A DNA stretch of 64,000 nucleotides, from assembly GCA_934271715.1 (NCBI GenBank), contig CAKQRZ010000009.1, forward strand, positions 9,613 to 73,612, in the 5' to 3' direction. Each line of letters starts with the position of its first letter. The first letter of the stretch is position 1. Position numbers and translations under genes: made by a program. Under the pieces are notes generated by a model. The model saw nothing but the letters and a program-made list of their open reading frames with translations. It did not search any database and was not told where the DNA came from. This document shows, in pieces, positions 8,295 to 62,215 of this stretch. This DNA comes from an uncultured Alphaproteobacteria bacterium (GTDB taxonomy: Bacteria > Pseudomonadota > Alphaproteobacteria > RF32 > CAG-239).

Positions 8295-8948
8295 CTAAAA
8301 TCTTATGCCGATATTGCATTCTCCGTCTAAACCATCGCAAAATTTGCACATCGCCTGAAAATCTGAAAGTGTGGACGAGGCTATACATTTTCGGTCTTTC
8401 GTACCGCAATATTTAGCGCCGTAACGGGTTGTTCCAGACCAATCATTTGCTGAATTAGCAACAGTAACGCGGAATAGCTCCGAACTTAGCGGCAAGGCGA
8501 GGTTATTCAATAATTCCGTGCATAGCTTAACCGAAAAGTTTACGCTTACCGACGCACCGCTTTCATTTTTAGTGGTTCCGCCTAAATACATATCAAAAGA
8601 TAGGAGTTCGCCGTTCAAAAGATAGGCAGCTACGTTATTTCCCTGAGAATCCTTATACCATATCTTGCTTTGTTTAACCCAGCTCTCTGGCACCATATTC
8701 ATTGCCGCCATAGTATCTGCGAGAAATACCTGATTTTGCGGATTAGAACGTAACAGATTGTCTTTATGCTCCAGCAGCTGAAAAATAACATTGCTGTATT
8801 CTTCCACCAATTTATTAACTTTAAACTTCTCCATAGCCTTGGAGTAACCGGCGATACCACCGACACTTAACACACCGATAATCGCCAGCACTCCCAGCAT
8901 TTCTATCATGCTGCGGCCAAAGGAATTTGCGCCTCTAGCACCCGTCAT
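8295..8948 (-). CDS. Type IV pilin-like protein with Cys-rich C-terminus (paralogue 1)
   Basis: MTGARGANSFG|RSMIEMLGVLAIIGVLSVGGIAGYSKAMEKFK prepilin-type N-terminus; C-terminal CKFCDGLDGECNIGIRF. The ORF stays open in frame upstream to 9395 through the GC-rich modules. Confidence 0.75.
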   Translation of the reverse strand: MTGARGANSFGRSMIEMLGVLAIIGVLSVGGIAGYSKAMEKFKVNKLVEEYSNVIFQLLEHKDNLLRSNPQNQVFLADTMAAMNMVPESWVKQSKIWYKDSQGNNVAAYLLNGELLSFDMYLGGTTKNESGASVSVNFSVKLCTELLNNLALPLSSELFRVTVANSANDWSGTTRYGAKYCGTKDRKCIASSTLSDFQAMCKFCDGLDGECNIGIRF

Positions 8949-9440
8949 ACTAGGCCCTGTGCCTAGTATCTTGTGGCACCAAGGGCGTGGCAATCCAGAA
9001 CCCTCGCCCCGTGAGGGAGAGGGGGACGCCTTGGCGTCGGGTGAGTGGTACTTAAAGAACGAGCAAAAGGCACTAGACAAGCGTTCCCGGCACCAGCCTG
9101 AAACGTCATACTTGTTGCCACACCCCACAGGCTGTGGCAGACGAGTATCCATGACTTTGTTGCTGTAAGCAACGCTTTTTTGTTTACTTGCCACCAGAGA
9201 GAACCCGCGTCCCCGGCACCAGTCATTCTTGGGTTTATCCCAAGAATCTTCTCTCAATAGGCACTTATTTAATAAGGCTAATTTATTGACTAGGTTAGAT
9301 ACTTGTTGCCAGAAGATTCTAGGCACAGGGCCTAGAATGACTGGTGCTAGGGACGCTAGCTTAGTGTTTGTTGTGGTGTTTGTGTTACCCCTCACCCGGA
9401 GCGCTGCTCCGACCTCTCCCTCAAGGGGCGAGGCTGTCAG
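8949..9440. repeat. GC-rich palindromic leader modules (modules C1, D, C2), with an inverted second C1+D copy at 9297-9440
   Basis: ctaggccctgtgcctag hairpin, gacgccttggcgtc palindrome, ccctcgccccgtgagggagaggg hairpin, and the block encoding MDTRLPQPVGCGNKYDVSG. 8935-8990 and 9297-9356 are about 85% identical in inverted orientation. Confidence 0.7.
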
Positions 9441-9490
9441 TTTGCTTCTGTGCGTGTTATTTCTGAATATATCATTTTTTCTGCCAAACC

Positions 9491-9660
9491 CTGCAAAAAC
9501 GTGCTTGACGGCAGAAAAAGCGTCTTTAATCAGATGTTCAGGATTTGCAGAGAGAGAGAGAGAGACCTTTGCTTAGCTTATTTTTCATCTTTCTTTCCTC
9601 ATTTTTAAGTTAATTTACATTTTTATTCTATGCCAGCCATATTCCCTATGTCAACCGGAA
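9491..9660 (-). promoter_or_regulatory. Class A pilin leader: sigma70-like promoter, RBS and uORF with a (CT)n tract
   Basis: Minus-sense TTGACA-N17-CATAGAAT, then gaggaaagaaagATG; uORF MKNKLSKGLSLSLCKS* contains the 17-nt tc run (plus 9549-9565). This is followed by a ctgcaaa/tttgcag inverted repeat. Confidence 0.6.
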
Positions 9661-9676
9661 AATGAATTAGCATATT

Positions 9677-10336
9677 TTAAAAATCTATAGTAACAGAACA
9701 CACTTCTTTTTTTGAACAAAGTTCACAGTTGTCATGTATTTCGCTGATACTAATGTTATTTAAACACTTTCGTCCTGCAGAACAATTTTTATCGCCATAA
9801 AAAATTGATGAATTTCCAGCAGATCTAAAAAAAAGTAATAGTTCTAAGGAAGAATGTAAGGGCTTAACCACATTACTGACAAGTTCGGTACAAAATTTAG
9901 TGGAAAAATTTTCGGTTATCCATGAACTTTCATCAGGAAATTGTGAACCACCTAAGACAAAATCAAAACGAAGATTTCCGTTTCTTGAATAAATAGCGAT
10001 AATATTGCTATATGGGTCTTCAAATAAATTTTCTTGTGTAGAATCTAAATTATTTGTTTTCATATTCCAAGTTGGCGGAACTAAATTTAAAGCGTTTGCT
10101 AGTTTTATAAGTGGAGTAGTTTTTCCGTCCACATATTTAGTGGAATATTTAAATTCATCTAGGTGTTCCAACATTCCATAAATTAAGTAGCTATATTCTT
10201 CAATCGCCTTATCAAGCTTAAATTTCTCCATAGCTTTGGAATATCCGGCTATTCCGGCAACGCTCAGTACGCCGATAATCGCCAGCACGCCGAGCATTTC
10301 AATCATGCTTCTCCCTTTTTCTAAATTCTTATACAT
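9677..10336 (-). CDS. Type IV pilin-like protein with Cys-rich C-terminus (paralogue 2)
   Basis: MYKNLEKG|RSMIEMLGVLAIIGVLSVAGIAGYSKAMEKFK; C-terminal CELCSKKEVCSVTIDF. GGAG RBS sits before MYKN. Confidence 0.8.
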   Translation of the reverse strand: MYKNLEKGRSMIEMLGVLAIIGVLSVAGIAGYSKAMEKFKLDKAIEEYSYLIYGMLEHLDEFKYSTKYVDGKTTPLIKLANALNLVPPTWNMKTNNLDSTQENLFEDPYSNIIAIYSRNGNLRFDFVLGGSQFPDESSWITENFSTKFCTELVSNVVKPLHSSLELLLFFRSAGNSSIFYGDKNCSAGRKCLNNISISEIHDNCELCSKKEVCSVTIDF

Positions 10337-10366
10337 ATTTCTAACTCCGTTTAATTTGTTGTACAT

Positions 10367-10570
10367 AAAACAAAACCCGCTACAAAAAGCGGGCGGATGT
10401 TCAGAAACCGTACGAAAACAAACGGCTCGGCTTATTCAGCTCATAGCCATATTCAGCCGACATCCGCCTAACAGACAGAAATCGGCATAACAAGTTTTAA
10501 GTCGCTATGCATAACGACTGTTTTCGTAAAGGGGTTCTGACGCCCTAGACAGACTATCGTCTATCCAAAA
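10367..10570 (-). promoter_or_regulatory. Class B pilin leader with intrinsic-terminator hairpin (putative attenuator or riboswitch)
   Basis: Conserved about 190 nt shared with 30788-31030, 47270-47464 and partly 42520-42746. Minus-sense ...catccgcccgctttttgtagcgggttttgtttt lies just 5' of the RBS. Confidence 0.55.
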
Positions 10571-10724
10571 ATTATTTTAACGGAATAATATGCGAAAGTA
10601 AAGGATTTTTATAATTAAGTAAAAACAAAGCATTATCAGGATATTGCTTTAAACAAAAAAAGACTTTCATTACAAATTGCTGTACACAATCTGTGATGAA
10701 AGTCTTTATTAAAGATACTTGGCG

Positions 10725-11573
10725 TTATTTGCCCATCAATTCTCTGCGGTCACAGCTGCGATAAATGAGCCATTTGTAAATGGACAGCATTTTCTCGTTT
10801 CCGGCAACGGCCAAATCTTCAGGATGCCATTGCACACACAAAATACCATCATCCATATTGCCCCAAGCTTCCGGAATGCAATCAGATGAAATCGCGTAAA
10901 TATCCAAATCGCTGTTTTTGTCGTCCGGTATAACTCCTTCACGATGGCGGGAATTTACTGTAATTTTCTTACCTAACCACGCGCGGAGCGGAGTAGCCGG
11001 ATAAATAATAACCTGATGAGCATTGACTTCAGAAGTCTTGTGTTCAATAGATGAACGAGTTTCGTTCAGGTTACGGTACAGCTTCATGCCATGAACACCT
11101 GCCACCATCTGAGCGCCTGCGCAAATACCTAAGATAGGAATTGCGTTTTCTTCGGCCACGCGGATGGCTTCAATATACGCCTTAGAACGAAGACTCGGTT
11201 CTTCAGGACTGTTAACGCGGGTTGCGTAGAATTCATCCGGAGAAACAAACGCTCCACCAGGCAGAACAAGTCCGTCAATTTCAGCCATTTGGGTTTCTAC
11301 TTGGGTATAGGTTAAACCCATGATGCGTCCGCCGGCCATGCAGATTGCCTTAGCGTAGTTGTAGTCTATAGAATAGTGTCCTTTCTCGCGTCCCAGCAAA
11401 AAACCGATTGTCGGAGCATCTGCATCATAGTCAAGTCCTAGTTCTTGCACTTCATCCCAGGGAAACAGAATTACAGGAAAATCGCCTTGTGCAATAACCT
11501 GATTTACTTTTTCGTCTGAAATTACATACGCGTTAAACTGAGGCTCATAAACCAAATATAAAACCTTTTGCAT
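10725..11573 (-). CDS. Class I glutamine amidotransferase-like, C26 gamma-glutamyl hydrolase (PuuD-like)
   Basis: GICAGAQM nucleophile-Cys motif and VQWHPE His-Glu motif. Confidence 0.65.
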   Translation of the reverse strand: MQKVLYLVYEPQFNAYVISDEKVNQVIAQGDFPVILFPWDEVQELGLDYDADAPTIGFLLGREKGHYSIDYNYAKAICMAGGRIMGLTYTQVETQMAEIDGLVLPGGAFVSPDEFYATRVNSPEEPSLRSKAYIEAIRVAEENAIPILGICAGAQMVAGVHGMKLYRNLNETRSSIEHKTSEVNAHQVIIYPATPLRAWLGKKITVNSRHREGVIPDDKNSDLDIYAISSDCIPEAWGNMDDGILCVQWHPEDLAVAGNEKMLSIYKWLIYRSCDRRELMGK

Positions 11574-12396: not shown

Positions 12397-13263
12397 TTAG
12401 AAAATTTTGTCAAGTTTTATTTTGTAGTTTTGCGCCTGCTGCGCCAGCCAGTTATATATGCGCTGCATAGAAATATCTCCGTTGGCGGCAAAGTCTTCGG
12501 GGTGCCATTGAATGCACAGTATATCTTTTTCAGAATTTCCCCAGGCTTCCGGTACATTGTCTTCCGTGCGGGCATAAATCGTCAATTTGCTGTCTGAAGC
12601 ATAAGGCAACATAGATTCCGTGTGGCGCGAATTGGTTTCAATCTCCTCAGTTTGCAAAAGGTCAAACAGCGGCGAGGGCTTTTTAATTAAAACTTTATGA
12701 GCGTCTAAAATCTTGGTTTTATGCTCAATATCCGTGTTGGTATATTGTTTGGTGTTGCGGTACATTTTCATACCCAGCATGCCGCCAATCATCTGGGCAC
12801 CGGCGCAGATGCCCAGCATTGGCAAATTCTGCTGCAAAGCGGCGGTTATGCAGTCAAGATAGGCTTTAGCACGGGCTTCATATTTGGCAGAGAGCTGCGG
12901 CGCGGCGTCGCAGTAAAATTGTTCAGGCGACGGAAATCTTCCGCCCGGCAAAATTAAGCCGTGAATTCCGCTCATTTGCTTGGTGCAGGCAGAGTAGGTT
13001 AAAAAACGGATATTTACGCCGGATTGCAAAATAGCGCGGGCGTAGTTATAGTCAATAGTGTAGTAATTTTCATCGCGTCCCAGCAAAAAGCCGATGGTCG
13101 GTTTGTCTTCTTTCGGCGCGGAGGCAAGCTGCTCAATATCCTGAGGAGCTAAAGAAATTAAAGGAATTATATTTTGTTTTTCAAATAAGTTTATTTGCTC
13201 ATCGCTGATGCCGTAAGCTTCGTATTGCGGCAGATATTCTAAAGTAACAGATTGTGTGTGCAT
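12397..13263 (-). CDS. C26 gamma-glutamyl hydrolase-like, paralogue of 10725-11573
   Basis: GICAGAQMIGG and IQWHPE; same architecture and N-terminal extension as its paralogue. Confidence 0.65.
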   Translation of the reverse strand: MHTQSVTLEYLPQYEAYGISDEQINLFEKQNIIPLISLAPQDIEQLASAPKEDKPTIGFLLGRDENYYTIDYNYARAILQSGVNIRFLTYSACTKQMSGIHGLILPGGRFPSPEQFYCDAAPQLSAKYEARAKAYLDCITAALQQNLPMLGICAGAQMIGGMLGMKMYRNTKQYTNTDIEHKTKILDAHKVLIKKPSPLFDLLQTEEIETNSRHTESMLPYASDSKLTIYARTEDNVPEAWGNSEKDILCIQWHPEDFAANGDISMQRIYNWLAQQAQNYKIKLDKIF

Positions 13264-13424: not shown

Positions 13425-14192
13425 CTATTTAAGTTTATAGACTGTTATCTGACGAACTTTGAAACACTCAACCAACATACCGGGTTTGGCATTAGCCCAT
13501 TTAGGGTCATCATAAGTATGTAATCTGACTTTGTGACCGTTGGTAAAGGTTACATCAATAATGGAGATTGTAGCTCTGTCTTGCGTTTTATTATCTCGGA
13601 TTATTGTTTTGTTGATTTCAGATTGCGTATTAGCAGAATACCACTGAACCTTTTGAGCAATGCTTGGTTCTAAGTTTTTTTCAAATTGTTTTGATGTCCA
13701 ATTATTGCTTAAATGCACAGAATAAGCTTTATAAGCCGAAACCAATTTAACATCTTTAATTTTCAGAAGCTTTCTGTCTTTTTTATAAACAGGTTGAAGA
13801 ATTCTGCCATCAGAATAAAGCAGCATGTCTTTTCTATATAAACCTTCTTTATATTTATGAAAAATTGAACTGACTTTTTTTGCTGGGTAAACTTGCTCGA
13901 AATCAGTGGGCCAATGAATTGTAGTGATGATTACTTTTTTCAATTCACTGTCATATAGATAATTAGGTTGAGAGTAGCAGAATTCAAGCGAAGTTATAGC
14001 ATCTGATTTACAAATAACTCTTGAGGTGTACCAATCACGCATTGCATAACGCATACCTTTAACAAAGAAAGAGGATTTTTCATATAAGCTTTCTTTAACT
14101 TTTATATTATCCAGTCTATAGAACCTGATTTGAGCCGAAGCGTTAAAGTTAAACACAAAAGCCATCAAGATAACTAAAAATAATCTCATCAT
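13425..14192 (-). CDS. Hypothetical secreted protein (copy A of a tandem duplication)
   Basis: Signal peptide MMRLFLVILMAFVFNFNASAQIRFY...; the C-terminus ...VRQITVYKLK is shared with 14382-15158. Confidence 0.5.
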   Translation of the reverse strand: MMRLFLVILMAFVFNFNASAQIRFYRLDNIKVKESLYEKSSFFVKGMRYAMRDWYTSRVICKSDAITSLEFCYSQPNYLYDSELKKVIITTIHWPTDFEQVYPAKKVSSIFHKYKEGLYRKDMLLYSDGRILQPVYKKDRKLLKIKDVKLVSAYKAYSVHLSNNWTSKQFEKNLEPSIAQKVQWYSANTQSEINKTIIRDNKTQDRATISIIDVTFTNGHKVRLHTYDDPKWANAKPGMLVECFKVRQITVYKLK

Positions 14193-14381: not shown

Positions 14382-15158
14382 CTATTTAAGTTTATAGACA
14401 GTTATCTGACGAACTTTGAAACGCTCAACAATCATACCAGGTTTGGCATTTTCCCATGCAGGTTTATTGTACCATTTGGGGTCATCATAGGTCTGAAGTT
14501 TTACTTTTTGACCATTTGTAAATGTCACTTCTATGACAGATATTTTTTTCTTTTCCTGAAAAACAACATCTGTCGCATTGTGCTTACCTTGTTTGTATTC
14601 TGCAGCCCAAGTTAAAGATTGTTCAGGTATCCAATGATAGATGTTTGCCATAAACTGAGCGTTAGTCCAATTTGTGCCTAGTGTTACTTTTTGAGAATTA
14701 TATTCAGAGCATAACTTTATTGATTTAATTTTCAAAAGCAGTCTGTACTGCTTGCTAATCATTTCAACGGTTGCGCCGTCAGAGTATAGTAATTGCCCTT
14801 TTGTATATGATCCATATGCCAGTGCAGCATTATAAGGAGTGTATGTTTGCATATATTCCATCGGAGGATTGGTGCATTTTGTCACTATACTTATTTTTTC
14901 TAAATATCCATCTCGTTTATAGTCTGCATCAATATAGGTTAAAGAGCCGGAGGAACAAAAATACTTTCCTTTATAGCTATGAGTTTCTGTTTTAGGAAGA
15001 AGCAACATGCTCTTTCCCATATAAACAATCCTTGTTCCTGTTGTCTCGTACGTCCTATCTTTAATTTGTATATTATCCAGACTATAGAATCTGATTTGAG
15101 CCGAAGCGTTATAATTAAACACAAAAGCCATCAAGATAACTAAAAATAATCTCATCAT
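14382..15158 (-). CDS. Hypothetical secreted protein (copy B of a tandem duplication)
   Basis: N- and C-termini identical to copy A with a divergent middle; the upstream 165 bp and the downstream terminator are duplicated exactly. Confidence 0.5.
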   Translation of the reverse strand: MMRLFLVILMAFVFNYNASAQIRFYSLDNIQIKDRTYETTGTRIVYMGKSMLLLPKTETHSYKGKYFCSSGSLTYIDADYKRDGYLEKISIVTKCTNPPMEYMQTYTPYNAALAYGSYTKGQLLYSDGATVEMISKQYRLLLKIKSIKLCSEYNSQKVTLGTNWTNAQFMANIYHWIPEQSLTWAAEYKQGKHNATDVVFQEKKKISVIEVTFTNGQKVKLQTYDDPKWYNKPAWENAKPGMIVERFKVRQITVYKLK

Positions 15159-21671: not shown

Positions 21672-21718
21672 GAAAATTCATGTACTTCTGTGTATGCTAA
21701 AATTTTCTCTCTTAGTAT
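21672..21718. terminator. Hairpin terminator (agagagaaaatt...aattttctctct), copy 1
   Basis: 11-bp inverted repeat plus T-run; the same stem recurs at 22966-22998, flanking the pilin cassette. Confidence 0.5.
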
Positions 21719-22374
21719 CAAAATTCTAAAACTATGGCGCAGATTTTTTCTTCATCAATACAATAGTTGCAAATATCATTGATATCAGAAAGCGTAATTG
21801 AGCTTAAACATTTTGCGTTTGGATTATCCTTGCATGTGCTGTCTCCATAATATGCAGCACCGGATTTATATGTAAAAAAGATATGGTGTACGGCAGAATG
21901 CAGAGGCTGAACCAAATCAGTCATTAAACTTTGACAGAGTTTACCCGAAAAATTAGTATTGTGAGCAATATTGCCGTCTTCATCCAAAGCGCCGCCCAGA
22001 TACATGTCTATAACCAGCCGGTTGTTGCGTGAAAATAATTGAATAATATTGCCGTAAGGGTCATACATTCGGCGGAAGTTTATTTTTTTATAGCTATCCG
22101 GAACCAGATTTAAGCCAAAAGCAAAATCAATCAGTCCGGCAGATTCTATAAGGTTGGTATTTTCGCTGTTTAGTTTTTGTATATAGTCTAAGTTTTCCAA
22201 CAGTCCATAAATTAACATACTGTATTCATCCATAGCCTTATTGAGCTTAAATTTTTCCATAGCTTTGCTATATCCGGCAATGCCGCCGACACTTAAAACT
22301 CCTATAATCGCCAAAACGCCGAGCATTTCAATCATACTGCGGCCAAGCGGGTTTGTGCCTCTGCCACCAGTCAT
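21718..22374 (-). CDS. Type IV pilin-like protein with Cys-rich C-terminus (paralogue 3)
   Basis: MTGGRGTNPLG|RSMIEMLGVLAIIGVLSVGGIAGYSKAMEKFK; C-terminal CNYCIDEEKICAIVLEF. The ORF is open upstream to 22617 through modules C1, D and C2. Confidence 0.75.
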   Translation of the reverse strand: MTGGRGTNPLGRSMIEMLGVLAIIGVLSVGGIAGYSKAMEKFKLNKAMDEYSMLIYGLLENLDYIQKLNSENTNLIESAGLIDFAFGLNLVPDSYKKINFRRMYDPYGNIIQLFSRNNRLVIDMYLGGALDEDGNIAHNTNFSGKLCQSLMTDLVQPLHSAVHHIFFTYKSGAAYYGDSTCKDNPNAKCLSSITLSDINDICNYCIDEEKICAIVLEF

Positions 22375-22720
22375 CCTAGGCCGTGACGCACAGTCTGTAC
22401 CTAGGATCTTGTCGCACCAAGGGCGTGGCAATCCCTCTCCCCCTGCGGGAGAGAGTGACGCCTTGGCGTCGGGTGAGGGGTATTTAAAGGACTCGCAACA
22501 AGAATTAAATAGGCGCCTAAAGCCCAAACCCGAAACGTCATACTTGTCGCCACACCCTGCAGGCTGTGGCAGACGAGTATCCATGATTTTGTTGCCAACG
22601 GCAACGCATATTGACATTGCTTTAGCAATGGCGTTATGGATTCTCCGCCATGGTACTTCCGGCAGGGAGTACCGGCGAAGAATGACGCTGAGAGTGGAGG
22701 CGGAAAAGCGCGTGAACGTG
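22375..22720. repeat. GC-rich palindromic leader modules (C1, D, C2 and an extended C2)
   Basis: cctagg...cctagg hairpin, gacgccttggcgtc, ctctcccgcagggggagag, and the block encoding MDTRLPQPAGCGDKYDVSG. 22560-22700 is the reverse complement of 62470-62640. Confidence 0.7.
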
Positions 22721-22781
22721 CCGCCTGCTAGTTTAGTTCTTAATGCGTTATTTCTGAAAGTGTCATCTTTTCTGCCAAACC

Positions 22782-22960
22782 CTGCAAAAACGTGCTGAGC
22801 GGCAGAAAATATGCCTTTAATCAGATGTTTAGGATTTGCAGAGAGAGAGAGAGAGACCTTTGAATAGCTTATTTTTCATCTTTCTTTCCTCTTATTTTAG
22901 TTAATTACTATACTCATTCTATACCAGCCGCACTCCATAAGTCAACCGTAAAATCAAAAT
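22782..22960 (-). promoter_or_regulatory. Class A pilin leader (promoter, RBS, uORF with a 17-nt tc tract)
   Basis: Minus-sense TTGACT-N17-TATAGAAT; uORF MKNKLFKGLSLSLCKS*; run at 22840-22856. Confidence 0.6.
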
Positions 22961-29261: not shown

Positions 29262-29678
29262 ATGAATAAATCAAATTTAGACTTGGTAAATTTAAAAAAC
29301 TGTATTTCAACCTTGAAAAACTGCTCTAAAGATTTCAAAGCTGCTGACACGGAAATAATGAAAGAATATATCGCCGACGCCTGTATAAAACGTTATGAAT
29401 ATACAGTTGAAACAGCTTGGAAAACAATGAAAAAATTTCTGAAATTGGAATACGGTAAAAAAGACGAAGAACTGACTATGAACAATATTTTCCGTTTTAT
29501 GGAGGGGTATGGATTTATTCATTCTTGGGAAAAGTGGCGTGAATATTACGACCGAAGAAATGACACCAGCCACGAATATAGCCAAGTTAAAGCTCTGGTA
29601 ATTTTAGGCATGGTTGATAATTTAGTTGAAGACTGTGAATTTTTGTATAAAAAACTGCAAGATAAAATGGAAAAATAA
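29262..29678 (+). CDS. HEPN-domain nucleotidyltransferase substrate-binding protein (HI0074/HepT-like toxin)
   Basis: YDRRNDTSHEYSQ contains the R-x4-H HEPN motif; the stop abuts the next start. Confidence 0.65.
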   Translation: MNKSNLDLVNLKNCISTLKNCSKDFKAADTEIMKEYIADACIKRYEYTVETAWKTMKKFLKLEYGKKDEELTMNNIFRFMEGYGFIHSWEKWREYYDRRNDTSHEYSQVKALVILGMVDNLVEDCEFLYKKLQDKMEK

Positions 29679-29984
29679 ATGGTTTTAGGCGTGACAGACA
29701 AAGAACAGCGGATTATAGAAGATATTTTAGACGCTTATGCGGATAGTTATGCCTTTTATTACTATGGTTCGCGCGTAAAAGGCAATTTTGAAAAGACCTC
29801 TGATTTAGATGTTTTAATCAAAGGTCAAAAAGAAATGCCGCTGTTTATTTTAAGCGAGCTGAAAGAAAAATTTGACGCCAGCTATTTGCCGTACATTGTC
29901 AATTTTTCCGATTATCACAATATCACGCCTGATTTTTATGAGCATATCAAGCAAGATTTGGTTAATTACAAAGCAAATGCTTAA
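29679..29984 (+). CDS. Minimal nucleotidyltransferase (HI0073/MntA-like antitoxin)
   Basis: YYYGSRVKGNFEKTSDLDVLI matches the GS...DxD NTase motif; 101 aa. Confidence 0.65.
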   Translation: MVLGVTDKEQRIIEDILDAYADSYAFYYYGSRVKGNFEKTSDLDVLIKGQKEMPLFILSELKEKFDASYLPYIVNFSDYHNITPDFYEHIKQDLVNYKANA

Positions 29985-30787
29985 AACTCCAGAGTTACGG
30001 TACAGCTTTGCACGCCGCCTTCACAGCCGTTGCATTCATCGTTAATTTCGTCCAGAGTAATGTCGTTAAGGCATTTTTTGTCGCCGCCGCAATAGGCATC
30101 GCCGTAAAATTGCGTATTGTTGGCGCCGGATTTATAAATCCATGCATATTGCACGGCACTATGCAGCGGCTGAGCTAAATCGCTCATCAGGGCGCGGCAT
30201 AGCTTAACCGGAAAATAAGGTGTGAATCCGGTGCCATCATCATTATTTGTAAAACCGCCAATATGAAAATCCATAACCAAATTGCCGCCGCGGGAAAAAA
30301 CACTAACCATGTTGCCGTCAGAATCAATAAGCTGATTTATGGCGTTGTTGCTATGCCAATCGGCAGGAACTAAATTTGCCGCAAGCACATAGTCGCGCAG
30401 CCCGCATTCTTGCCAATTTGCTACCCAATCATTACATTTCAGCTTCTTAAATTCGTTTACATTTCCAATCATTCCCGCCACTAAATAGCTGTATTGTTCT
30501 ATAGTTTTGTTGATTTTAAACTTTTCCATCGCCTTTGAATAACCGGCAATCCCGCCAACCGATAATACTCCAATTATTGCCAGAACGCCTAGCATTTCAA
30601 TCATACTGCGGCCAAGCGGGTTTGTGCCTCTGCCACCAGTCATCCTAGGCCGTGACGCACAGTCTGTACCTAGGATCTTGTGGCACCAAGGGCGTGGCAA
30701 TCCAAAACCCTCGCCCCGTGAGGGAGAGGGTGCAGACTTGTCTGCGGGTGAGGGGTACTTAAAGACATTTTCAAATAATTTATACAT
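29981..30787 (-). CDS. Type IV pilin-like protein with Cys-rich C-terminus (paralogue 4); leader extended in frame by palindromic modules
   Basis: GGAGG RBS then MYKLFENVFKYPSPADKSAPSPSRGEGFGLPRPWCHKILGTDCASRPRMTGGRGTNPLG|RSMIEMLGVLAIIGVLSVGGIAGYSKAMEKFK; C-terminal CNGCEGGVQSCTVTLEF. Modules D and C1 (gcagacaagtctgc palindrome, cctagg hairpin) insert 150 nt in frame relative to paralogue 2. Confidence 0.7.
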   Translation of the reverse strand: MYKLFENVFKYPSPADKSAPSPSRGEGFGLPRPWCHKILGTDCASRPRMTGGRGTNPLGRSMIEMLGVLAIIGVLSVGGIAGYSKAMEKFKINKTIEQYSYLVAGMIGNVNEFKKLKCNDWVANWQECGLRDYVLAANLVPADWHSNNAINQLIDSDGNMVSVFSRGGNLVMDFHIGGFTNNDDGTGFTPYFPVKLCRALMSDLAQPLHSAVQYAWIYKSGANNTQFYGDAYCGGDKKCLNDITLDEINDECNGCEGGVQSCTVTLEF

Positions 30788-31030: not shown

Positions 31031-31176
31031 AAGATAATCTGAAAGTAAAGACATTTTTATTTCACAAAATCAAAAAATAAATACACTTTTTAAGATTTTT
31101 CTAAAAAAGTATTTAATTTATTGCAAAGACGAATTGTCTACCTCCAAGTTAATATATTGAAGAGGAATATAACATA

Positions 31177-42329: not shown

Positions 42330-42746
42330 TATTACTACAAAATAACATTTAAATCAATTTATTTTTATAGCTTTATACAGCCTAACTAATTATCAATAAG
42401 CTGCCACACGACGTCAAAAAAACTGTAAAATATGCGGAACCAGCCTCCTCCATAAGTTAATTACTAAGACAATGTGCTGTAATAAGAAAAACATCTTTAC
42501 TTTCCGATTATCTTTAGCTAAAATAGATGTTGGATAGGCGATAGTCTGTCTGGGGTGTCGTAGCCTCTTATTCATGCGTCTATATGACGTTAAATATCTT
42601 CTAGCTTTATAGCTGGAAGGTAGCAAAATATGCCATATTCGCAATGGTTAATATGCTGCACTATAATCATGAATAATAGTTACGAACTTCCAGCTGTCTC
42701 GCCGACAGCTTTTTTGTTACACGAAAAATAATGAAAGGAAGTTACG

Positions 42747-43397
42747 ATGAAACAAAATCAATTAGGCAGAAGTATGATAGAAATGCTCGGCGTACTGGCA
42801 ATAATTGCAGTTTTAAGCGTCGGCGGGATTGCCGGATATTCTAAAGCCATGCTGATGTGGCATTCAAATAAGCAGAAAGACTTACTGGCAACGCTTATCA
42901 ATAATGCTATCACGCTTAAACCCAATTTATCTACTTTGAGGGAAAATCGTTCGCAGACTATTACTGATGTTTTTATTGCGATGGGCGGTGTACCGGAGGG
43001 TTTTACCTATCAAAACAATGTGATATATGATGCCGATAATAATTCAATCAGCATAACTTACGGGATTGAGTATGATAGGCAAAGAGATGATTCTTTGGTA
43101 AAAGTATTTAAATATGCTATCAGAATCAGCGCTATTGAGGGAACAGGCAAGCTTTCCATATCTATGAAAGAGTATTGCAAAAATTTGATTATGGCTGCTC
43201 AGTCAGCGCCGAATGAAGTTCTGTCTGTAGATTTTTCCAGCATAGATTCTGATTCTTGGTCAGGCACCAGCGGAGCTTTGATTTTTAACCGCAGCACCCG
43301 AGGGCAGACCTCTCCGGCGCAGATAAATGAACGCTGCAATATAGCCATTAAAGAAAACGGGCGAGGTTACTTTAGAATTTTGCTGAATCCAAATTAA
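42747..43397 (+). CDS. Type IV pilin-like protein (divergent paralogue 5, no Cys-rich C-terminus)
   Basis: MKQNQLG|RSMIEMLGVLAIIAVLSVGGIAGYSKAM. Preceded by a partial class B leader box (ggataggcgatagtctgtctgggg) and a terminator hairpin cagctgtctcgccgacagcttttttg. Confidence 0.75.
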   Translation: MKQNQLGRSMIEMLGVLAIIAVLSVGGIAGYSKAMLMWHSNKQKDLLATLINNAITLKPNLSTLRENRSQTITDVFIAMGGVPEGFTYQNNVIYDADNNSISITYGIEYDRQRDDSLVKVFKYAIRISAIEGTGKLSISMKEYCKNLIMAAQSAPNEVLSVDFSSIDSDSWSGTSGALIFNRSTRGQTSPAQINERCNIAIKENGRGYFRILLNPN

Positions 43398-43399
43398 GT

Positions 43400-43673
43400 A
43401 AGGATTTTAAAATAAATCATCATGCGAACCGGTGGCTACTAAAATAAGTTTAGTTTCGGTTGTACGATAAATTAAAAGCCAGTCATTTGCTATGTGGCAT
43501 TCGCGGTAGTTTTGCTAATTACCGCTTAAAGCATGGTCTTTGTGTTTGGACGGCAGATTTTCACATTCAGCCAATTTTTCTACAACTTCGTAAAAAAGGT
43601 CTAAGTTATAATGCTTCTTTTTATAATTTTTCAACTGCCTTAAAAAGCAAGTATCATGTACGATATTCAGCAT
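43400..43673 (-). pseudogene. yafQ: YafQ-family type II toxin interrupted by an in-frame amber codon at the conserved Trp
   Basis: MLNIVHDTCFLRQLKNYKKKHYNLDLFYEVVEKLAECENLPSKHKDHALSGN*QNYRECHIANDWLLIYRTTETKLILVATGSHDDLF. The YafQ consensus has SGNWKGYRECH; here TGG has become TAG (plus 43507-43509). Confidence 0.6.
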
Positions 43674-43957
43674 TAGTCTTCCTCATCAACTAATGCTTTC
43701 AGGCTGTTAATATTGGAGTGTTTACAAAAATTCTGTGTGTCTTTACCGGCAATATAATCGTCAGCGCGTTTCATGGCTGTTTGCAGTTCGGTGTTTGGCT
43801 CGTCATAGAGTTTCAGCATAAACGGAATACTGCGTGTGTTTCTGATTTGAGCAAAAAACAAACGAACGGCGTCAGAGGTTGTTAAGCCCAAACGACTAAG
43901 CACATCTTCTACGTCGGCTTTTAAATTTTCATCTATCCGTATATTTAAATTAACCAT
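43673..43957 (-). CDS. dinJ: RelB/DinJ-family antitoxin
   Basis: MVNLNIRIDENLKADVEDVLSRLGLTTSDAVRLFFAQI ribbon-helix-helix; stop overlaps the yafQ ATG (taATG). Confidence 0.75.
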   Translation of the reverse strand: MVNLNIRIDENLKADVEDVLSRLGLTTSDAVRLFFAQIRNTRSIPFMLKLYDEPNTELQTAMKRADDYIAGKDTQNFCKHSNINSLKALVDEED

Positions 43958-44095
43958 TTTTACTCTCCATTTGTAATATATTGTAAAGTGTCTAAAGTAC
44001 AATGTCAATACAAATATAGTATAATGACGGAAATATTAAATATAGCCAAAGGGTAAAAAAGCCTGATGTTTTGAGGCATCAGGCTCTTATAAAAA

Positions 44096-46676: not shown

Positions 46677-47269
46677 GTACTAAAAATGATATGAATAATA
46701 ACATATCAGCAAATATATAATTTATCTGCTTAAAGGAAGCGAATAGGGAAAATCGGGAATTTTCAAGAGCTATGAACAAATTGTGAGCTGTTTTAATGAA
46801 ACAGCCTGCAAAGGTCGGGGAGTTCGCAAATCATAATTCAGATTGATTTCTTACACCTTTAAAAGCATTAGAACCGATTAACACTTTTTGTACATACATG
46901 TAAGACTCCCCGCTGTTGGAGATATATTCCTGCAAGAGGAACTAACAAGCTTTCTGAATTATTAACTTGCGACAGTTAAGCGGCATATTTCATACCGCAG
47001 AATAAAGCTTTTATGAAGCGGAATATATAATATATTATTGCATAATGCAATATATTTTTTTAAAACCTGACAAAAAGTCTAATATAAAATGTAAAAGATG
47101 TAGTTTAATATTATATTATTCTAAATAAAGTAGAATATGCGGAAAATAGTAAATAAGCAGCAAAAAATAATTATTTTATAAAATCATTTGACTCGCGCCA
47201 AAAAATTATATAGCCTTATTTATAGATATGGAAAACCATATTCAGGGCGTCGAAAACCCTTTTACTAAA

Positions 47270-47464
47270 TTGAATAGTCGCTTTTGAGCATAAGCGACTT
47301 AAAATCGTGTATGCCGACTTCTGTTCTAAGGGACGGATGTCGGTGAATAAGGCTATATGCTGAATAAGCCGAGCCGTTTTTTTATTCAATTTAGTGACGG
47401 TTTTCGAACATCCGCCCGCTTTTTACGGCGGGTTTTGTTTTTTATATAACAAAATTAAACGGAG
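47270..47464 (+). promoter_or_regulatory. Class B pilin leader with terminator hairpin (plus-strand copy)
   Basis: agtcgcttttgagcataagcgact hairpin ... catccgcccgctttttacggcgggttttgtttttt, then aaacggagttggaaaatATG. Confidence 0.55.
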
Positions 47465-47473
47465 TTGGAAAAT

Positions 47474-48100
47474 ATGTATAAAAATTTTGAAAAAGGCCGT
47501 TCCATGATAGAAATGCTGGGCGTGCTGGCGATTATTGGAGTGCTGAGTGTCGGCGGAATTGCAGGTTACTCCAAGGCTATGGAGATGTGGAAGCTGAACA
47601 AGGCAAATGAAGAATACAGCTACTTAATCCAAGGGCTGATAGAGCAAAAAGACAATATCATGGCGAATAATGTAACCGGAGGCTTGGCTGCGGTTGTTAC
47701 CGCGCTTCATCTGGTGCCGGAAACATGGAAAGATGCTGTCGGAACCGTTAACAACGCCACCTTAAGCGACCCGCAGGGAAATTTAATAAACGTATTTGTC
47801 CGAGAAAAGAGGATTGTTGTTGATTTTTATTTAGGCGGATTAGTTGGTAATGAGCTAAGAACCTCTCTCAGCTTTTCTAAAAAATTCTGTATGTCTTTAA
47901 TGCAAAACACGGTGCAGCCATTGGCTCCGGCTTTATATTATTCACGTCTCGCTCATATTTGGGATGCTCAGCATATCTATTACGGCAGCAAATTCTGTGG
48001 AGCAGGGCGGACTTGCCTGAAAGATTTGACGCTGCCGGAAATAAAAGAAATATGCGACAGCTGCACCGGCATCAGATGCGCAATCGTTTTGGAATTTTAA
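47474..48100 (+). CDS. Type IV pilin-like protein with Cys-rich C-terminus (paralogue 6)
   Basis: MYKNFEKG|RSMIEMLGVLAIIGVLSVGGIAGYSKAMEMWK; C-terminal CDSCTGIRCAIVLEF. Confidence 0.8.
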   Translation: MYKNFEKGRSMIEMLGVLAIIGVLSVGGIAGYSKAMEMWKLNKANEEYSYLIQGLIEQKDNIMANNVTGGLAAVVTALHLVPETWKDAVGTVNNATLSDPQGNLINVFVREKRIVVDFYLGGLVGNELRTSLSFSKKFCMSLMQNTVQPLAPALYYSRLAHIWDAQHIYYGSKFCGAGRTCLKDLTLPEIKEICDSCTGIRCAIVLEF

Positions 48101-54154: not shown

Positions 54155-54787
54155 TTATCTCCAGCTCATTCCAACGTAGCAAGAATCCTTTTTTACGCAG
54201 GATTTACAAATTGTACTTATTTCAGAAAGCGTCATATCAGACAGACATTTTACTTCCTTTGTGAAATCGGAATTATAGCAGGTTGTTGTATAAACCATAA
54301 AACTGTCGCTGTTGGTTATTGCGTCATTAGCAATAAATAGCGCGGCGTAATCCATATTTGCTGCTAAAGGATATACAACATCATGCGACAAAGCTAAGCA
54401 TAATTGATAAGCATATTCAGAATCTTTGTTTATTCCGTCTGGAACAATGTATATGTCGGAGGTAAAAACAGTACCGGATGGAACTGGATTAACATAGGTA
54501 TTGATTTTATTTCCCAAAGAATCGGTTATAAATTGCTTGTTTACCAATTTCCAAGTTTCCGGCACCAGCTTTGCGTCTATAATAAACTGGGATAAGAATC
54601 TGTTGTCATAGTCTCCTGAGTAGGTTTTAAATAAACTTTCCTGATATTCCATTAGACCGGTCATAAGCATAGTATATTCTTCGGTCATTTTGTTGATTTT
54701 GTATTTCTCTATTGCCTTGGAATATCCGGCGATTCCACCGACACTCAGCACACCGATAATGGCTAGAACGCCCAGCATTTCAATCAT
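54155..54787 (-). CDS. Type IV pilin-like protein (paralogue 7), with no in-frame ATG for a leader peptide
   Basis: The ORF begins directly at MIEMLGVLAIIGVLSVGGIAGYSKAIEKYK; Cys-containing C-terminus CKSCVKKDSCYVGMSWR. A 60-codon open frame with no ATG lies upstream (...TSPLEGEGYTG-RS-MIEML). Confidence 0.7.
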   Translation of the reverse strand: MIEMLGVLAIIGVLSVGGIAGYSKAIEKYKINKMTEEYTMLMTGLMEYQESLFKTYSGDYDNRFLSQFIIDAKLVPETWKLVNKQFITDSLGNKINTYVNPVPSGTVFTSDIYIVPDGINKDSEYAYQLCLALSHDVVYPLAANMDYAALFIANDAITNSDSFMVYTTTCYNSDFTKEVKCLSDMTLSEISTICKSCVKKDSCYVGMSWR

Positions 54788-54882
54788 ACTCCGCCCGGTA
54801 TAACCCTCTCCCTCAAGGGGCGAGGTTGTAGGTTTTGTTCTGTGCGTATTATTTCCGAATGTGTGATTTTTTACGCTGAACT

Positions 54883-55050
54883 CTGCAAAAACGTGCTGAG
54901 CGGCAGAAAATATGCCTTTAATCAGATGTTTAGGATTTGCAGAGAGAGAGAGAGAGACCTTTGCTTAGTTTATTTTTCATCTTTCTTTCCTCTAAAATTA
55001 TGTTGTTTACGTACCAATTCTATAACAGACGTTTAACTAAAGTCAACAGG
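54883..55050 (-). promoter_or_regulatory. Class A pilin leader (promoter, RBS, uORF with a 17-nt tc tract)
   Basis: Minus-sense TTGACT-N17-TATAGAAT, then gaggaaagaaagATG; uORF MKNKLSKGLSLSLCKS* (plus 54930-54980); tract at 54941-54957. Confidence 0.6.
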
Positions 55051-55247
55051 TAAATATATCAAAGATATGACACCGGCAGAAATTAGTGAGGCTTGCCAAA
55101 TGTGTAAAGATAACGGAGAAAATGCTTGTTTCATATTGATGTATTTTTAGACATGTAATACACTTTATTAAAATATACATATTGACTTTTATGAGTTAAT
55201 ATTTTATTGCTTATTCAAATAGTTATTTTTATGTCAAACTAATTTTT

Positions 55248-56555: not shown

Positions 56556-56565
56556 TTTTATCTCC

Positions 56566-59920: not shown

Positions 59921-61146
59921 TTGAATTGAAAACTATTTTTAAAATTGCCATCCGCGCCATTCACGCTAATAAAATGCGTTCGGTTTTGACTAGCTTGGGT
60001 ATAATTATAGGTGTGGCGGCGGTTATTGTAATGCTTGCTATCGGCAATGGCGCGCAGCTCTCAATCCAAAAAGAAATGCGCAGTATGGGAACAAATCTGA
60101 TTATGATTCGTTCCGGCTCCTCAACTTCCGGAGGAGCGCGTATGGGACACGGCTCGCAGCCGACGCTCAAAAACGGCGATGCCGACGCCATTCAAAACAA
60201 AATAGCCGCTATCCGTTTGGCCGTGCCTGTGGTTAATGACAGCGGACAAATCGTTTATGGCAGCACCAACTGGGCGACCAATATTGTGGGAACAGACAAC
60301 CGCTATTTTGAAATAAAAGAATGGGAGTTGGCTTATGGGCGTGATTTTTCGGACGCTGATATTAAAAACGCAAACAAAGTCGCCATTCTCGGTCAAACTG
60401 TTGTTAAAGAGCTGTTTGGTGATATTGACCCTTTAGGCAAAACTATTCGTATTAAGGGATTGCCTTTTACGGTTATCGGCGCTTTGACTACACGCGGACA
60501 AAGCGGTCCGGGGCAAAACCAAGATGATATGGTTTATTTACCGCTCAGCACCGTGCAAAAAAAAGTTTCCGGAACAGAATTTCCCGATATGGTTAATATG
60601 CTTATGTTACAGGCTTATGATGCAGAAAGCACTTACACATCGCAAGATGAAATTACTACCCTGTTGCGTCAACGCCACCGTTTGGGATTAAATAAAGACG
60701 ATGATTTTACCATTATGAACCTGACGCAATTTATGGAAATGATGCAAAATTCCACTAAAATTATGACTATTTTACTCGGCTCAATCGCTTCAATATCATT
60801 ATTGGTAGGCGGTATCGGTATTATGAACATAATGCTTGTTTCGGTTACCGAACGCACGCGTGAAATAGGTATCCGTATGGCAATTGGCGCCAAACGCTGG
60901 GACATCCGTCTGCAATTTTTGATGGAAGCGTTGATTTTATCGCTGCTCGGAGGCTTAATCGGGGTTATATTTGGTATCGCCGGTGTTTATCTGCTGCCGA
61001 AACTGACTTCTATTTCGGCGGAATTATCCACATTCTATGTGATTTTGCCATTTAGTTTTTCGGGCATTGTTGGCTTGCTGTTTGGTTTTTTCCCAGCCTA
61101 TAAAGCCTCGCTTTTGAATCCGATAAACGCTTTGCGCTATGAATAA
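59917..61146 (+). CDS. ABC transporter permease (FtsX/MacB-type)
   Basis: MacB_PCD periplasmic domain followed by FtsX-like four-TM domain with GIGIMNIMLVSVTERTREIGIRMAIGA. Confidence 0.8.
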   Translation: MIELKTIFKIAIRAIHANKMRSVLTSLGIIIGVAAVIVMLAIGNGAQLSIQKEMRSMGTNLIMIRSGSSTSGGARMGHGSQPTLKNGDADAIQNKIAAIRLAVPVVNDSGQIVYGSTNWATNIVGTDNRYFEIKEWELAYGRDFSDADIKNANKVAILGQTVVKELFGDIDPLGKTIRIKGLPFTVIGALTTRGQSGPGQNQDDMVYLPLSTVQKKVSGTEFPDMVNMLMLQAYDAESTYTSQDEITTLLRQRHRLGLNKDDDFTIMNLTQFMEMMQNSTKIMTILLGSIASISLLVGGIGIMNIMLVSVTERTREIGIRMAIGAKRWDIRLQFLMEALILSLLGGLIGVIFGIAGVYLLPKLTSISAELSTFYVILPFSFSGIVGLLFGFFPAYKASLLNPINALRYE

Positions 61147-61201
61147 AATATAGCAGATATTCCTCATCGTTCTATGCGGAATATCTGCTTTTAATTTATA
61201 A

Positions 61202-61870
61202 TCAATAAGTTATAACAATAGAACAAGTTCCGTTGCTGTCTCCGCAGGTATGGCAAGCTGCGTTTATTTCTGCCAGAGTTACGTTTTTTAGGCATTTTTT
61301 ATCAGCACCGCAATAATTATTTCCATACCATAACTGATTAAGAGTTTGCGCACCTCCACGCCATACATAGGAATAATCCACAAATTCGGAAAGCGGCTGT
61401 ACAAAGTTTAGAAACAACTCACGGCAGAGCTGAACTCGCTGTTCAGCTAAAGAGTAAGAATCTTTAACCTCATATTCTTCCAGCAGATAAATTTCAAAAA
61501 CTAAATCTGAACCGCCCCGCCATATCTGTATTCGGTTATTAAGCCGGTCATGAACATTGCTGGCGTTATCATATGTCCAAGAAGTTGGAATAGCGTTTAG
61601 AGACTGCATTATATCGGCATAGCCGCTGCCGTTTGGAACTTTTCTAATATCATCCAAATGCTCAATGGCTCCAAACATAAAATGGGTATATTCACTAATC
61701 AGTTGATTAACCTTCCACTTTTCCATCGCCTTAGAATATCCTGCAATTCCTCCGACTGTTAAAACGGCAATAATGGCTAGAACGCCCAGCATTTCAATCA
61801 TTGACCGACCGGCTGAAACTGCGTATAGCGGCGCATCTAAAGCAGTTTTACGCTGTCTCAAAAAATTCAT
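61202..61870 (-). CDS. Type IV pilin-like protein with Cys-rich C-terminus (paralogue 8)
   Basis: GGAGG RBS then MNFLRQRKTALDAPLYAVSAG|RSMIEMLGVLAIIAVLTVGGIAGYSKAMEKWK; C-terminal CHTCGDSNGTCSIVITY. The ORF-track start at 61978 has no RBS. Confidence 0.75.
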   Translation of the reverse strand: MNFLRQRKTALDAPLYAVSAGRSMIEMLGVLAIIAVLTVGGIAGYSKAMEKWKVNQLISEYTHFMFGAIEHLDDIRKVPNGSGYADIMQSLNAIPTSWTYDNASNVHDRLNNRIQIWRGGSDLVFEIYLLEEYEVKDSYSLAEQRVQLCRELFLNFVQPLSEFVDYSYVWRGGAQTLNQLWYGNNYCGADKKCLKNVTLAEINAACHTCGDSNGTCSIVITY

Positions 61871-62037
61871 GTACCTCCAATGTACACTAGGATTTTTTTC
61901 GCAGCTAGAAACCACTTTATCTACACCGCTCTCCGCAGTTTTGAAGAATTTTGCGGCGCATTGACGCACGGCATCCAAAGTCTTAAATGCGATGTTGGTT
62001 AGGTTAATTTCTTGTTTGCTGATTTTTTCAAAAAACT

Positions 62038-62215
62038 CTGCAAAAACACGCTGAGCGGCAAAAAATACGCCTTTAATCAGATGTTTAGGATTTGCAGAGA
62101 GAGAGAGAGACCTTTGCTTAGCTTATTTTTCATCTTTCTTTCCTCTTAAATTAAGTTGTTTACTAGATTTATTCTATACCAGCCTTACTCCATAAGTCAA
62201 CCGCAAAATCAAGGC
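62038..62215 (-). promoter_or_regulatory. Class A pilin leader with a shorter, 15-nt tc tract
   Basis: Minus-sense TTGACT-N17-TATAGAAT; uORF reads MKNKLSKGLSLSLQILNI* because the tract (plus 62096-62110) is one dinucleotide shorter than in the other three copies. Confidence 0.6.

Follow-up and report, generated by a model that had tools for sequence, protein, structure and literature searches.

In Neisseria, surface variation involves the CTCTT repeats of the opa genes and the antigenic variation of pilE/pilS. Short dispersed palindromic repeats, some of them in frame within coding sequence, are represented by the Rickettsia palindromic elements and by the repetitive extragenic palindromic (REP) and bacterial interspersed mosaic element (BIME) sequences. 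In Helicobacter pylori, oipA is ON with 6 or 9 CT repeats in its signal-peptide region (PMC4225565). Type IV pilin-like proteins are defined by a hydrophilic leader ending in Gly or Ala and followed by 20–25 mainly hydrophobic residues, often with Glu at position +5, and the type IVb pili are restricted to Proteobacteria (PMC10191384). A stretch of 64,000 nucleotides (nt) from an uncultured Alphaproteobacteria bacterium (GenBank assembly GCA_934271715.1, contig CAKQRZ010000009.1, positions 9,613 to 73,612), here called the window, was found to carry eight paralogous genes that combine features of these systems. The genes encode divergent type IVb-like pilins, and they are probably controlled independently, in cis, by two kinds of cassette, designated type A and type B, so that together they would form a switchable repertoire.

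A six-frame search of the window for the motif GRSMIEMLGVLAII returned exactly eight open reading frames (ORFs), at 8295, 9677, 21718, 29981, 42747, 47465, 54155 and 61202. This bears out a preliminary description of the window, in which eight genes with a common prepilin-like N-terminus were placed at the same coordinates; for the six minus-strand genes the coordinate quoted there is the stop end. The genes are referred to below by these coordinates or, in the same order, as copies 1 to 8. All eight encode the block G↓RSMIEMLGVLAII(G/A)VL(S/T)V(G/A)GIAGYSKA, where the arrow marks the predicted cleavage site, and they diverge after about residue 35 into dissimilar mature domains of ~200 amino acids (aa). 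The anatomy matches a class III signal peptide: the hydrophilic leader terminates in Gly, some 20 hydrophobic residues follow, and Glu occupies +5, as in MYKNLEKG↓RSMIEMLGVLAIIGVLSVAGIAGY and in the seven other copies, and the definition of such a peptide covers all eight. The codons used for Arg+1 (CGT, AGA, CGG or CGC) and for Ser+2 (TCC, AGT, TCA or AGC) vary among the copies. As these belong to different codon families, the identity of the N-termini reflects selection on the protein, and recent gene conversion was ruled out as its source. Nor is the resemblance due to chance, since 109 of the 111 N-termini of relatives in other metagenome-assembled genomes (MAGs), among the matches listed from a scan of GTDB, retain G↓RS, with Glu+5.

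A Cys-rich C-terminus had been ascribed to six of the copies, 42747 and 54155 being described as different. The distinction stands for 42747, which has two Cys only, but not for 54155, which carries the Cys-rich pattern ..C..KCL....C..C.....C.. and departs from the others just in its final residues (VGMSWR instead of IVLEF). Clustering of the globular domains assigned six copies to clade c1, 42747 to c2 and 54155 to c3.

Evidence on the identity of the mature domains came from the wider family. Among 103 mature family sequences with this N-terminus, the Pfam model PilS matched 41 (best 4.9e-18), Bundlin 40 (best 5.9e-15) and TcpA 4. A profile of the whole family (A2), compared with the sequences of the PDB, matched bundlin BfpA (1ZWT, 5.3e-12) over the head domain, and also TcpA (8UHF, 2e-4) and PilS (1Q5F, 4e-3). 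One Cys column of A2 is invariant and a second is kept in at least 90% of members, and in the profile alignment these two columns coincide with the two Cys of bundlin. Matches of a profile built from c1 only (A1) to gp41 coiled coils were discarded as spurious, and the broader A2 profile was needed. The clades of the window were related to one another and to the Pfam-positive clade, c0, by hhalign after trimming of the first 40 residues; probabilities were 99.9% for c1 and c3, 98.5% for c1 and c2, 88% for c3 and c0 (3e-6) and 56% for c1 and c0 (1e-4). Structure prediction, a check proposed in the preliminary description, was carried out with AlphaFold2 on copy 47465. The model (predicted local distance difference test 80, predicted template modelling score 0.74) displays a 49-residue N-terminal helix (residues 8–56) followed by an alpha/beta domain.

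In its non-Phe +1 residue, its large mature protein and its confinement to Proteobacteria the family fits the type IVb class as it has been delineated (PMC10191384), and it is concluded that the eight genes encode divergent type IVb-like pilins. This identity is more specific than the one first proposed, and differs from the 'GspH pseudopilin' of the Prokaryotic Genome Annotation Pipeline (PGAP). The earlier suggestion that the genes form a diversified family of pilin-like proteins, and not one pilus subunit, is supported by the signal peptide, the fold model, the PilS and Bundlin matches and the profile links, and none of the hidden Markov models (HMMs) assigns the family elsewhere, an outcome that had been named as a ground for rejecting it.

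Two types of start were distinguished. A short leader is present in 9677 and 47465, as MYKN(L/F)EKG↓, and in 42747, as MKQNQLG↓. The distant type begins with MKNKLSKG, continues into a (CT)n tract and is in frame in none of the four window copies that possess it. Mechanically delimited ORFs were too long for 8295, 21718, 29981 and 61202 because the frame 5' of G↓RS stays open for 60–230 codons; the excess represents open upstream frames and not genuine N-terminal domains. Database entries for relatives (P0008, P0012, P0087, P0270 and others) were seen to carry spurious N-terminal extensions of 50–180 aa, introduced by gene callers for the same reason, and in a large share of entries the profile match begins at residue 50–180.

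The type B cassette belongs to copies 8295, 21718, 54155 and 61202, which have a ~230-nt upstream block in common, and the same arrangement was found in at least 55 further genes outside the window. It comprises, in order, the promoter TTGACA-18-TAGAAT, the ribosome-binding site (RBS) GAGGAAAG, the codons ATG AAA AAT AAG CTA AGC AAA GGT, and (CT)n. All four cassettes and their genes lie on the minus strand. In copy 1 (c1), the segment from the Gly-1 codon through the mature pilin-like domain to the stop occupies 8295–8918, and the leader-coding region 8919–9588, with the ATG of MKNKLSKG at 9588 and (CT)8 at 9549–9564 (offset 1, out of frame); its frame is open throughout to G↓RS, and the promoter, at 9625–9654, has 11 of 12 consensus matches. 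The corresponding Gly-1-to-stop segments are 21718–22344 in copy 3 (c1), 54155–54796 in copy 7 (c3) and 61202–61810 in copy 8 (c1). Their cassettes, including promoter and RBS, extend over 22345–22957 in copy 3, with ATG at 22879 and (CT)8 at 22840–22855 (offset 1); over 54797–55058 in copy 7, with ATG at 54980 and (CT)8 at 54941–54956 (offset 1); and over 61811–62212 in copy 8, with ATG at 62133 and (CT)7 at 62096–62109 (offset 2). Thus n is 8 in copies 1, 3 and 7 and 7 in copy 8, and none of the four starts is in frame with the pilin. The pilin frame itself nevertheless runs without a stop between the tract and G↓RS in each case, over 144–630 nt. In copy 7 this frame contains no further start codon 5' of MIEML.

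The window genes were pooled with GTDB loci and with 67 metagenome loci fetched by the tract pattern. Of 70 pooled genes, 69 had a pilin frame without stops as far back as the tract, and the offset followed the repeat number: n = 6 gave offset 0 (4/4 with a recognised start), n = 7 offset 2 (38/38) and n = 8 offset 1 (13/14). The spacer from tract to Gly was a multiple of 3 in all 19 tabulated genes, at lengths of 48–630 nt, which is not expected of non-coding DNA. One gene with n = 6 (L118) is a single continuous ORF from MKNKLFKG to the pilin stop. Alleles were grouped by clustering at ≥95% identity, and in one pair, L126 (n = 7) and L153 (n = 8), 250 of 250 nt upstream and 996 of 1000 nt downstream of the tract are identical. 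Recognition of alleles by equal tract-to-Gly distance was rejected, the genes so paired being ~50% identical and hence paralogues. Programmed ribosomal frameshifting at the CT tract was likewise rejected, because n = 7 and n = 8 would need opposite shifts. The tract in the 5' coding region, the setting of the frame by repeat number and one tract polymorphism are the marks of a contingency locus. Judged by its sequence, the type B cassette has the anatomy of a slipped-strand contingency locus, from which we infer switching within a population.

REP-like palindromic elements, E1–E4, were recognised in the leader-coding regions of 8295 (8957–9433), 21718 (22345–22722), 29981 (30614–30757) and 54155 (54803–54825), all in frame and stop-free; in 29981 they lengthen the MYKLFEN...G leader to 62 aa. 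The only other REP-like copy in the window is an intergenic composite of E3 and E4 at 62496–62719 (plus strand), which has the opposite orientation to the one in the copy 3 leader. Related elements of an 'ARND' type occur in the leaders of other MAGs.

Copies 9677, 29981, 42747 and 47465 carry the type A cassette, made up of the promoter TTTACT-17-TAAAAT, a leader of ~230 nt and a short leader peptide; a terminator scan disclosed an intrinsic terminator ~30 nt before the RBS. In copy 2 (c1; 9677–10336, minus strand; MYKNLEKG↓RSMIEML..., 219 aa) the cassette spans 10337–10602 on the same strand, with the promoter at 10574–10602, the leader RNA at 10337–10568 and the terminator at 10375–10394. 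Copy 4 (c1; 29981–30787, minus strand) reads MYKLFEN, then a REP-like insert of ~50 aa in frame, then G↓RSMIEML..., and its promoter and structured leader RNA (30788–31070, minus strand) contain a sub-threshold three-way junction like that of sRNA-Xcc1 and C4 at 30834–30920. The promoter and structured leader RNA of copy 5 (42476–42746, plus strand) belong to a second sequence group, with compensatory substitutions, and precede the c2 gene with the different C-terminus (42747–43397, plus strand; MKQNQLG↓RSMIEML..., 216 aa). Copy 6 (c1; 47477–48100, plus strand; MYKNFEKG↓RSMIEML..., 208 aa), which is the 47465 of the preliminary description and the source of the structure model, follows a structured leader RNA with terminator at 47243–47476 (plus strand).

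An nhmmer profile of this leader gave 48 matches upstream of family genes in many MAGs, Bundlin-type members included, and examples outside the window, such as L045:3002-3305 and L091:1740-2004, come from at least 40 loci. For an alignment of 28 diverse leaders (A3), RNAalifold returned 40 pairs, 27 of them with compensatory double changes. In the named structure 97.6% of cells were paired, against 31–45% in slid-partner controls, and the covariation score was 0.60 against less than 0.09; none of 500 shuffles reached the observed values. The single-sequence fold had a z-score of -7.95. A long-range helix between columns 105–111 and 274–280 showed strong covariation. Columns 189–194 pair with 175–181 (P4) or, within a helix 189–197/281–289, with the strand feeding the terminator. 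P4 and this alternative helix share columns and both contain compensatory changes, and pair 195/283 (UA in 16 leaders, AU in 12) exists only in the alternative helix. In the terminator itself, 287–293/304–310, five of seven pairs have compensatory changes. The leader therefore has a terminator between promoter and RBS and alternative helices each with covariation, and its predicted layout is that of a 1:2 / 2:3 / 3:4 attenuator with a mutually exclusive terminator and antiterminator. Searches of Rfam assigned it to no family at the gathering threshold, and to no riboswitch or known leader even at E ≤ 5. The best scores were 31.9, 28.8 and 27.9 bits for sRNA-Xcc1 (RF02221; gathering score 53) and 19.9 bits for C4 antisense RNA (RF01695; gathering score 45), and as these lie below the thresholds the leader is not a member of either family. 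Among 96 classifiable genes of the unbiased GTDB sample (among the matches listed), 29 carried type A, 12 type B and 55 neither.

The family to which these genes belong is large. A word-indexed search gave more than 7,800 matches. In an exhaustive profile search covering 1.84 billion representatives, clusters at 50% identity numbered 3,866 for E ≤ 1e-10 and at least 5,586 for the looser E ≤ 1e-3. Scanning one genome per GTDB species with a DNA pattern yielded at least 106 stretches, several from one and the same MAG. Nearly all of the records are titled as MAGs of uncultured Alphaproteobacteria or Proteobacteria from the human gut, the rumen, termites and other animals, Ca. Enterousia among them. 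For a few, the taxon named is unrelated, presumably through wrong binning or labelling. Mature lengths are tightly clustered at 195–217 aa (median ~205 aa). A second, shorter pilin of ~145 aa in its mature form has the same G↓RSMIEML N-terminus, ends in ...ITYGE and is highly conserved across MAGs, those of Ca. Enterousia included (L012, L023, L024, L025, L036, L040:951-1415, L043, L065, L074, L077, L079, L084, L092 and L108:4545-5009). It does not occur in the window. Its neighbours are UvrC, PgsA, GyrB and DnaJ, and in both loci examined, L040 and L108, it is divergent beside uvrC. This conserved protein may be a core or major subunit.

From these features we infer how the system might operate. 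A prepilin-peptidase-type enzyme would cut the precursor after the Gly of G↓RSMIEML, so that the mature protein would begin with an invariant hydrophobic helix, alpha1-N, that bears Arg+1 and Glu+5. With this helix in common, any paralogue could be handled by one inner-membrane machinery and packed into one filament core, and the divergent, disulfide-bonded heads of ~170 aa would provide the exposed variable surface. Each gene would act as an independent, dispersed transcription unit with one cassette in cis. In type B, translation would proceed from MKNKLSKG through (CT)n, and a slipped-strand change of n would set the pilin frame: six repeats (or nine) would mean ON, and seven or eight OFF, the latter state being that of all four window copies. 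In type A, one fold of the leader would place a terminator just upstream of the RBS, and in the other the alternative helix would sequester part of that terminator and permit conditional read-through upon a signal. Between them, the two cassettes would allow a gut symbiont to switch its filament or surface subunits in many combinations.

A number of results weigh against this reading. An HMM search had also been proposed in the preliminary description, and for the window copies it fell just short: scores were 10.1–15.9 bits for PF07963 (N_methyl; cut-off 21.2) and 12.4–15.9 bits for TIGR02532 (cut-off 16.3), whereas the wider family is matched by PilS and Bundlin. Arg+1 and Ser+2, which stand where Phe-Thr is usual, probably explain why the cut-offs were narrowly missed. 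The window copies matched no other family above threshold either, Pfam recorded no direct match of a window copy to Bundlin, PilS or TcpA, Foldseek found no relative of the 47465 model in the PDB (best E 0.37), and the A1 profile met no solved pilin among PDB sequences. The dispersed gene arrangement and Arg+1 do not fit the type IVb class, an Arg at +1 has to our knowledge been reported for no pilin, and type B leaders of 60–230 aa are far above known pilin leaders in length. As for the switch, L126 and L153 are the sole informative pair, four other groups of near-identical alleles having no tract difference; ON alleles are rare (~6 of 70), and none has n = 9.

The assembly machinery adds to these points. 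No Peptidase_A24, T2SSF platform protein or secretin was present in the window, which was annotated with Pfam throughout, or in ~150 kb of context annotated in the same way, and tblastn with E. coli GspC, GspD, GspF, GspL, GspM and GspO against 1.44 Mb of related loci returned nothing. A compact operon with peptidase, ATPase, platform protein and secretin accompanies neither the eight window copies nor the relatives whose contexts were examined. A regex motif search of the related loci for A24 peptidases was also negative, and the pilin model is weakest on this point, the prepilin peptidase of the species. For the related Rs-D84 lineage (Ca. Enterousia), genomes of less than 1 Mb without standard transporters are reported in a paper that gives type IV pili only for another lineage (PMC12306168). 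In a literature search, the motif SMIEMLGVL was found in no paper, and pili of the RF32 or Rs-D84 lineages were described in none.

The sole machinery recovered, in related MAGs only and by searches that also used a T2SSE Walker A motif and tblastn with E. coli GspE, is an orphan ATPase of the T2SSE family (~320 aa; Pfam 6.7e-33), which adjoins family genes in three lineages (L091:2843-3796, L121:803-1765 and L075:1076-2041). Its nearest relatives are PilT, DotB and GspE, and it scores below all NCBIfam equivalog cut-offs. It has 7,965 homologues at E ≤ 1e-3; the named matches among the best 120 are all 'Alphaproteobacteria bacterium' MAGs, several under the PGAP name 'TadA', and the contexts of two homologues that were inspected held no further assembly genes. 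In L091 the gene after the ATPase encodes a membrane protein of 253 aa that has an FxLYD domain, and a longer homologue (429 aa) of another lineage stands beside a gene of HD-GYP type (HD_5). A weak GspE match in L040 was rejected, as the matching N-terminal region lies inside UvrC.

That no assembly operon was found near any of ~200 family genes would suit an explanation in which the proteins are not filament subunits but are displayed at the surface or in the periplasm, the class III signal peptide serving for insertion only, as in the sugar-binding proteins of the archaeal bindosome. Their heads would then individually bind nutrients or host ligands, and reduced genomes with few canonical transporters might need such proteins; Rs-D84 genomes, reportedly small and without standard transporters, and with no type IV pili reported, are of this kind (PMC12306168). 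The high diversity of the heads (5,586 clusters at 50% identity) agrees with this explanation, as does a weak similarity of the conserved orphan ATPase to the bindosome ATPase BasE, one of many families that it resembles. However, the heads are homologous to genuine type IVb major pilins (bundlin, TcpA and PilS) and not to binding proteins, the ATPase is closest to PilT, DotB and GspE, and the first 28 residues, including Glu+5, are absolutely conserved, as both filament packing and an assembly machinery demand. Display proteins are therefore regarded as an unlikely, though not negligible, explanation.

Two further explanations concern the annotation and the integrity of the genes. That the proteins are pseudopilins of the GspH family serving one type II secretion system follows the PGAP naming: several relatives are labelled 'type II secretion system GspH family protein' at NCBI, and there are weak NCBIfam matches to prepilin-peptidase-dependent proteins and to XpsH over the N-terminal helix. 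These matches cover just the N-terminal 40 residues at 13–17 bits, against cut-offs of 138–163, and XpsH reaches 12.4 bits against 160 over residues 7–44, with no GspH or XpsH match beyond the helix. Homology of the globular domains leads to Bundlin, PilS and TcpA. A single minor pseudopilin would not be expected eight times in 64 kb or in thousands of clusters, and no GspC, GspD, GspF, GspL or GspM homologue was found near any copy, so that this explanation is hardly credible. Decay, in which the frameshifted type B genes and the REP-riddled copies would be pseudogenes and the upstream conservation a product of recent duplication, could account for the out-of-frame state of all four type B copies in the window and of ~90% of those pooled, and for the REP-like insertions in leaders. 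Tract length is nevertheless the only lesion: the frame downstream is intact in 69 of 70 genes, the spacers are all multiples of 3 (19/19, 48–630 nt), and every REP insertion is stop-free and in frame. The N-terminus has been maintained through synonymous changes, and the cassettes are conserved across many MAG species, with compensatory changes in the RNA. Decay is accordingly rated very improbable, and divergent type IVb-like pilins under independent cis control remain the reading that we favour.

The eight copies are single genes dispersed amid housekeeping genes, as are the relatives in the contexts examined elsewhere. The G+C content of the window is 34–46%, and neighbours of the pilin-like genes include PheRS, ProRS, PFOR, the ribosomal proteins S4/L36/L20, SmpB, UvrC, ABC-F ATPases and MacB. 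Proteins identical to those of the window were found in human-gut metagenomes, on contigs from the Hadza among others, and in MAGs that NCBI lists as 'Alphaproteobacteria bacterium' (locus tags MSS98_). Genes of mobile or defence type are interspersed with the pilin genes at 29262–29984, 31177–33326 and ~43500–44010, namely a HepT/MNT-like toxin-antitoxin pair, a RhuM-family gene beside an ISL3 transposase fragment, and a YafQ/RelB toxin-antitoxin pair. The window also holds two tandem pairs of other paralogues. One (13425–14192 and 14382–15158; 255 and 258 aa) shares one and the same signal peptide (MMRLFLVILMAF...) and was assigned to no family; the other (10725–11573 and 12397–13263; 282 and 288 aa) has sequence blocks in common, with an unrelated ORF of 226 aa between its members. 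Among the metagenome loci L118–L184, many contigs start or end at, or a few bases from, a type B cassette (with matches, for example, at 2–29, at 6–35, or at 6728–6755 of a contig of 6763). The conserved cassettes thus seem to act as assembly-breaking repeats, and the copy number of the family in MAGs is therefore probably underestimated.

The bacteria that carry these genes are common in the guts of non-industrialised humans and of livestock and have never been cultured. If the proposed reading is true, a large repertoire of individually switchable pilins would be their most conspicuous surface feature and a candidate for adhesion and for evasion of immunity (immunoglobulin A). It would extend the type IVb pilins to new sequence space, with Arg+1, dispersed genes and giant leaders, and CT-repeat switching in a leader-coding region would have a second example, outside Helicobacter. 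The well-supported new structured RNA directly upstream of pilin genes offers a testable terminator/antiterminator switch, and its position adjoining those genes makes a search for its ligand or binding factor tractable. Annotations ('hypothetical', 'GspH family') and gene calls are wrong for thousands of database entries. More tentatively, and with some doubt on our part, small-genome gut Alphaproteobacteria might spend a sizeable share of their coding capacity on switchable Arg+1 pilins served by a minimal, diverged and dispersed machinery, with the CT switch and an undescribed attenuator RNA providing a form of antigenic or adhesive variation new for type IV filaments.

Compared with the type IVb pilins BfpA (PF05307, PDB 1ZWT), TcpA (PF05946) and PilS of Salmonella Typhi and R64 (PF08805), the family has in common Gly-1, Glu+5, a non-Phe residue at +1, a mature size of ~200 aa, a Cys pair aligned with that of bundlin, homology at the level of family profiles and, as for type IVb pili, restriction to Proteobacteria. 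It differs in that +1 is Arg and the first 28 residues do not vary among thousands of proteins, in that the window clades have diverged beyond the reach of the Pfam models and c1 and c3 have two additional Cys pairs, and in that leaders are either very short (7–8 aa) or very long (60–230 aa). Type IVb pilins are encoded in one operon of 10–14 genes, whereas the family genes are scattered singly, with many paralogues per genome. What is new in the family is the invariant Arg+1 N-terminus, the dispersed genes and their large numbers, the CT switches in long leaders and the attenuator-type leader RNA.

The type B cassette resembles oipA of H. pylori and its relatives in having (CT)n in the N-terminal leader- or signal-coding region, and its genes would likewise be ON only if n keeps the frame. 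Several outer-membrane protein paralogues of H. pylori switch independently, and the type B paralogues would resemble them in this. The substrate is a pilin-like family and not a beta-barrel outer-membrane protein, the tract lies 5' of a predicted cleaved prepilin leader, and the switchable paralogues are apparently far more numerous. With Neisseria the family has in common a multigene repertoire of surface adhesin or pilin variants and, in the case of opa, a repeat switch in the leader-coding region. Unlike pilE/pilS, the window contains no silent promoterless cassettes, each copy having its own promoter and start, and the synonymous differences at the N-termini argue against variation driven by gene conversion. 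Like the Rickettsia palindromic, REP and BIME elements, E1–E4 are short palindromic repeats whose in-frame insertion leaves the ORF unbroken; they have no sequence relationship to these, and their window copies are concentrated in pilin leaders (4 of 5 sites). Finally, both C4 and sRNA-Xcc1 can be aligned over their whole length to the 3' domain of the type A leader, with a closing stem around two hairpins, a GCCG...CGGUUU..CAAC segment and a C-rich/U-rich tail in common, but the leader has in addition a 5' domain (P1–P4), the long-range helix, the terminator and the alternative pairings, and it always lies directly upstream of a pilin gene.

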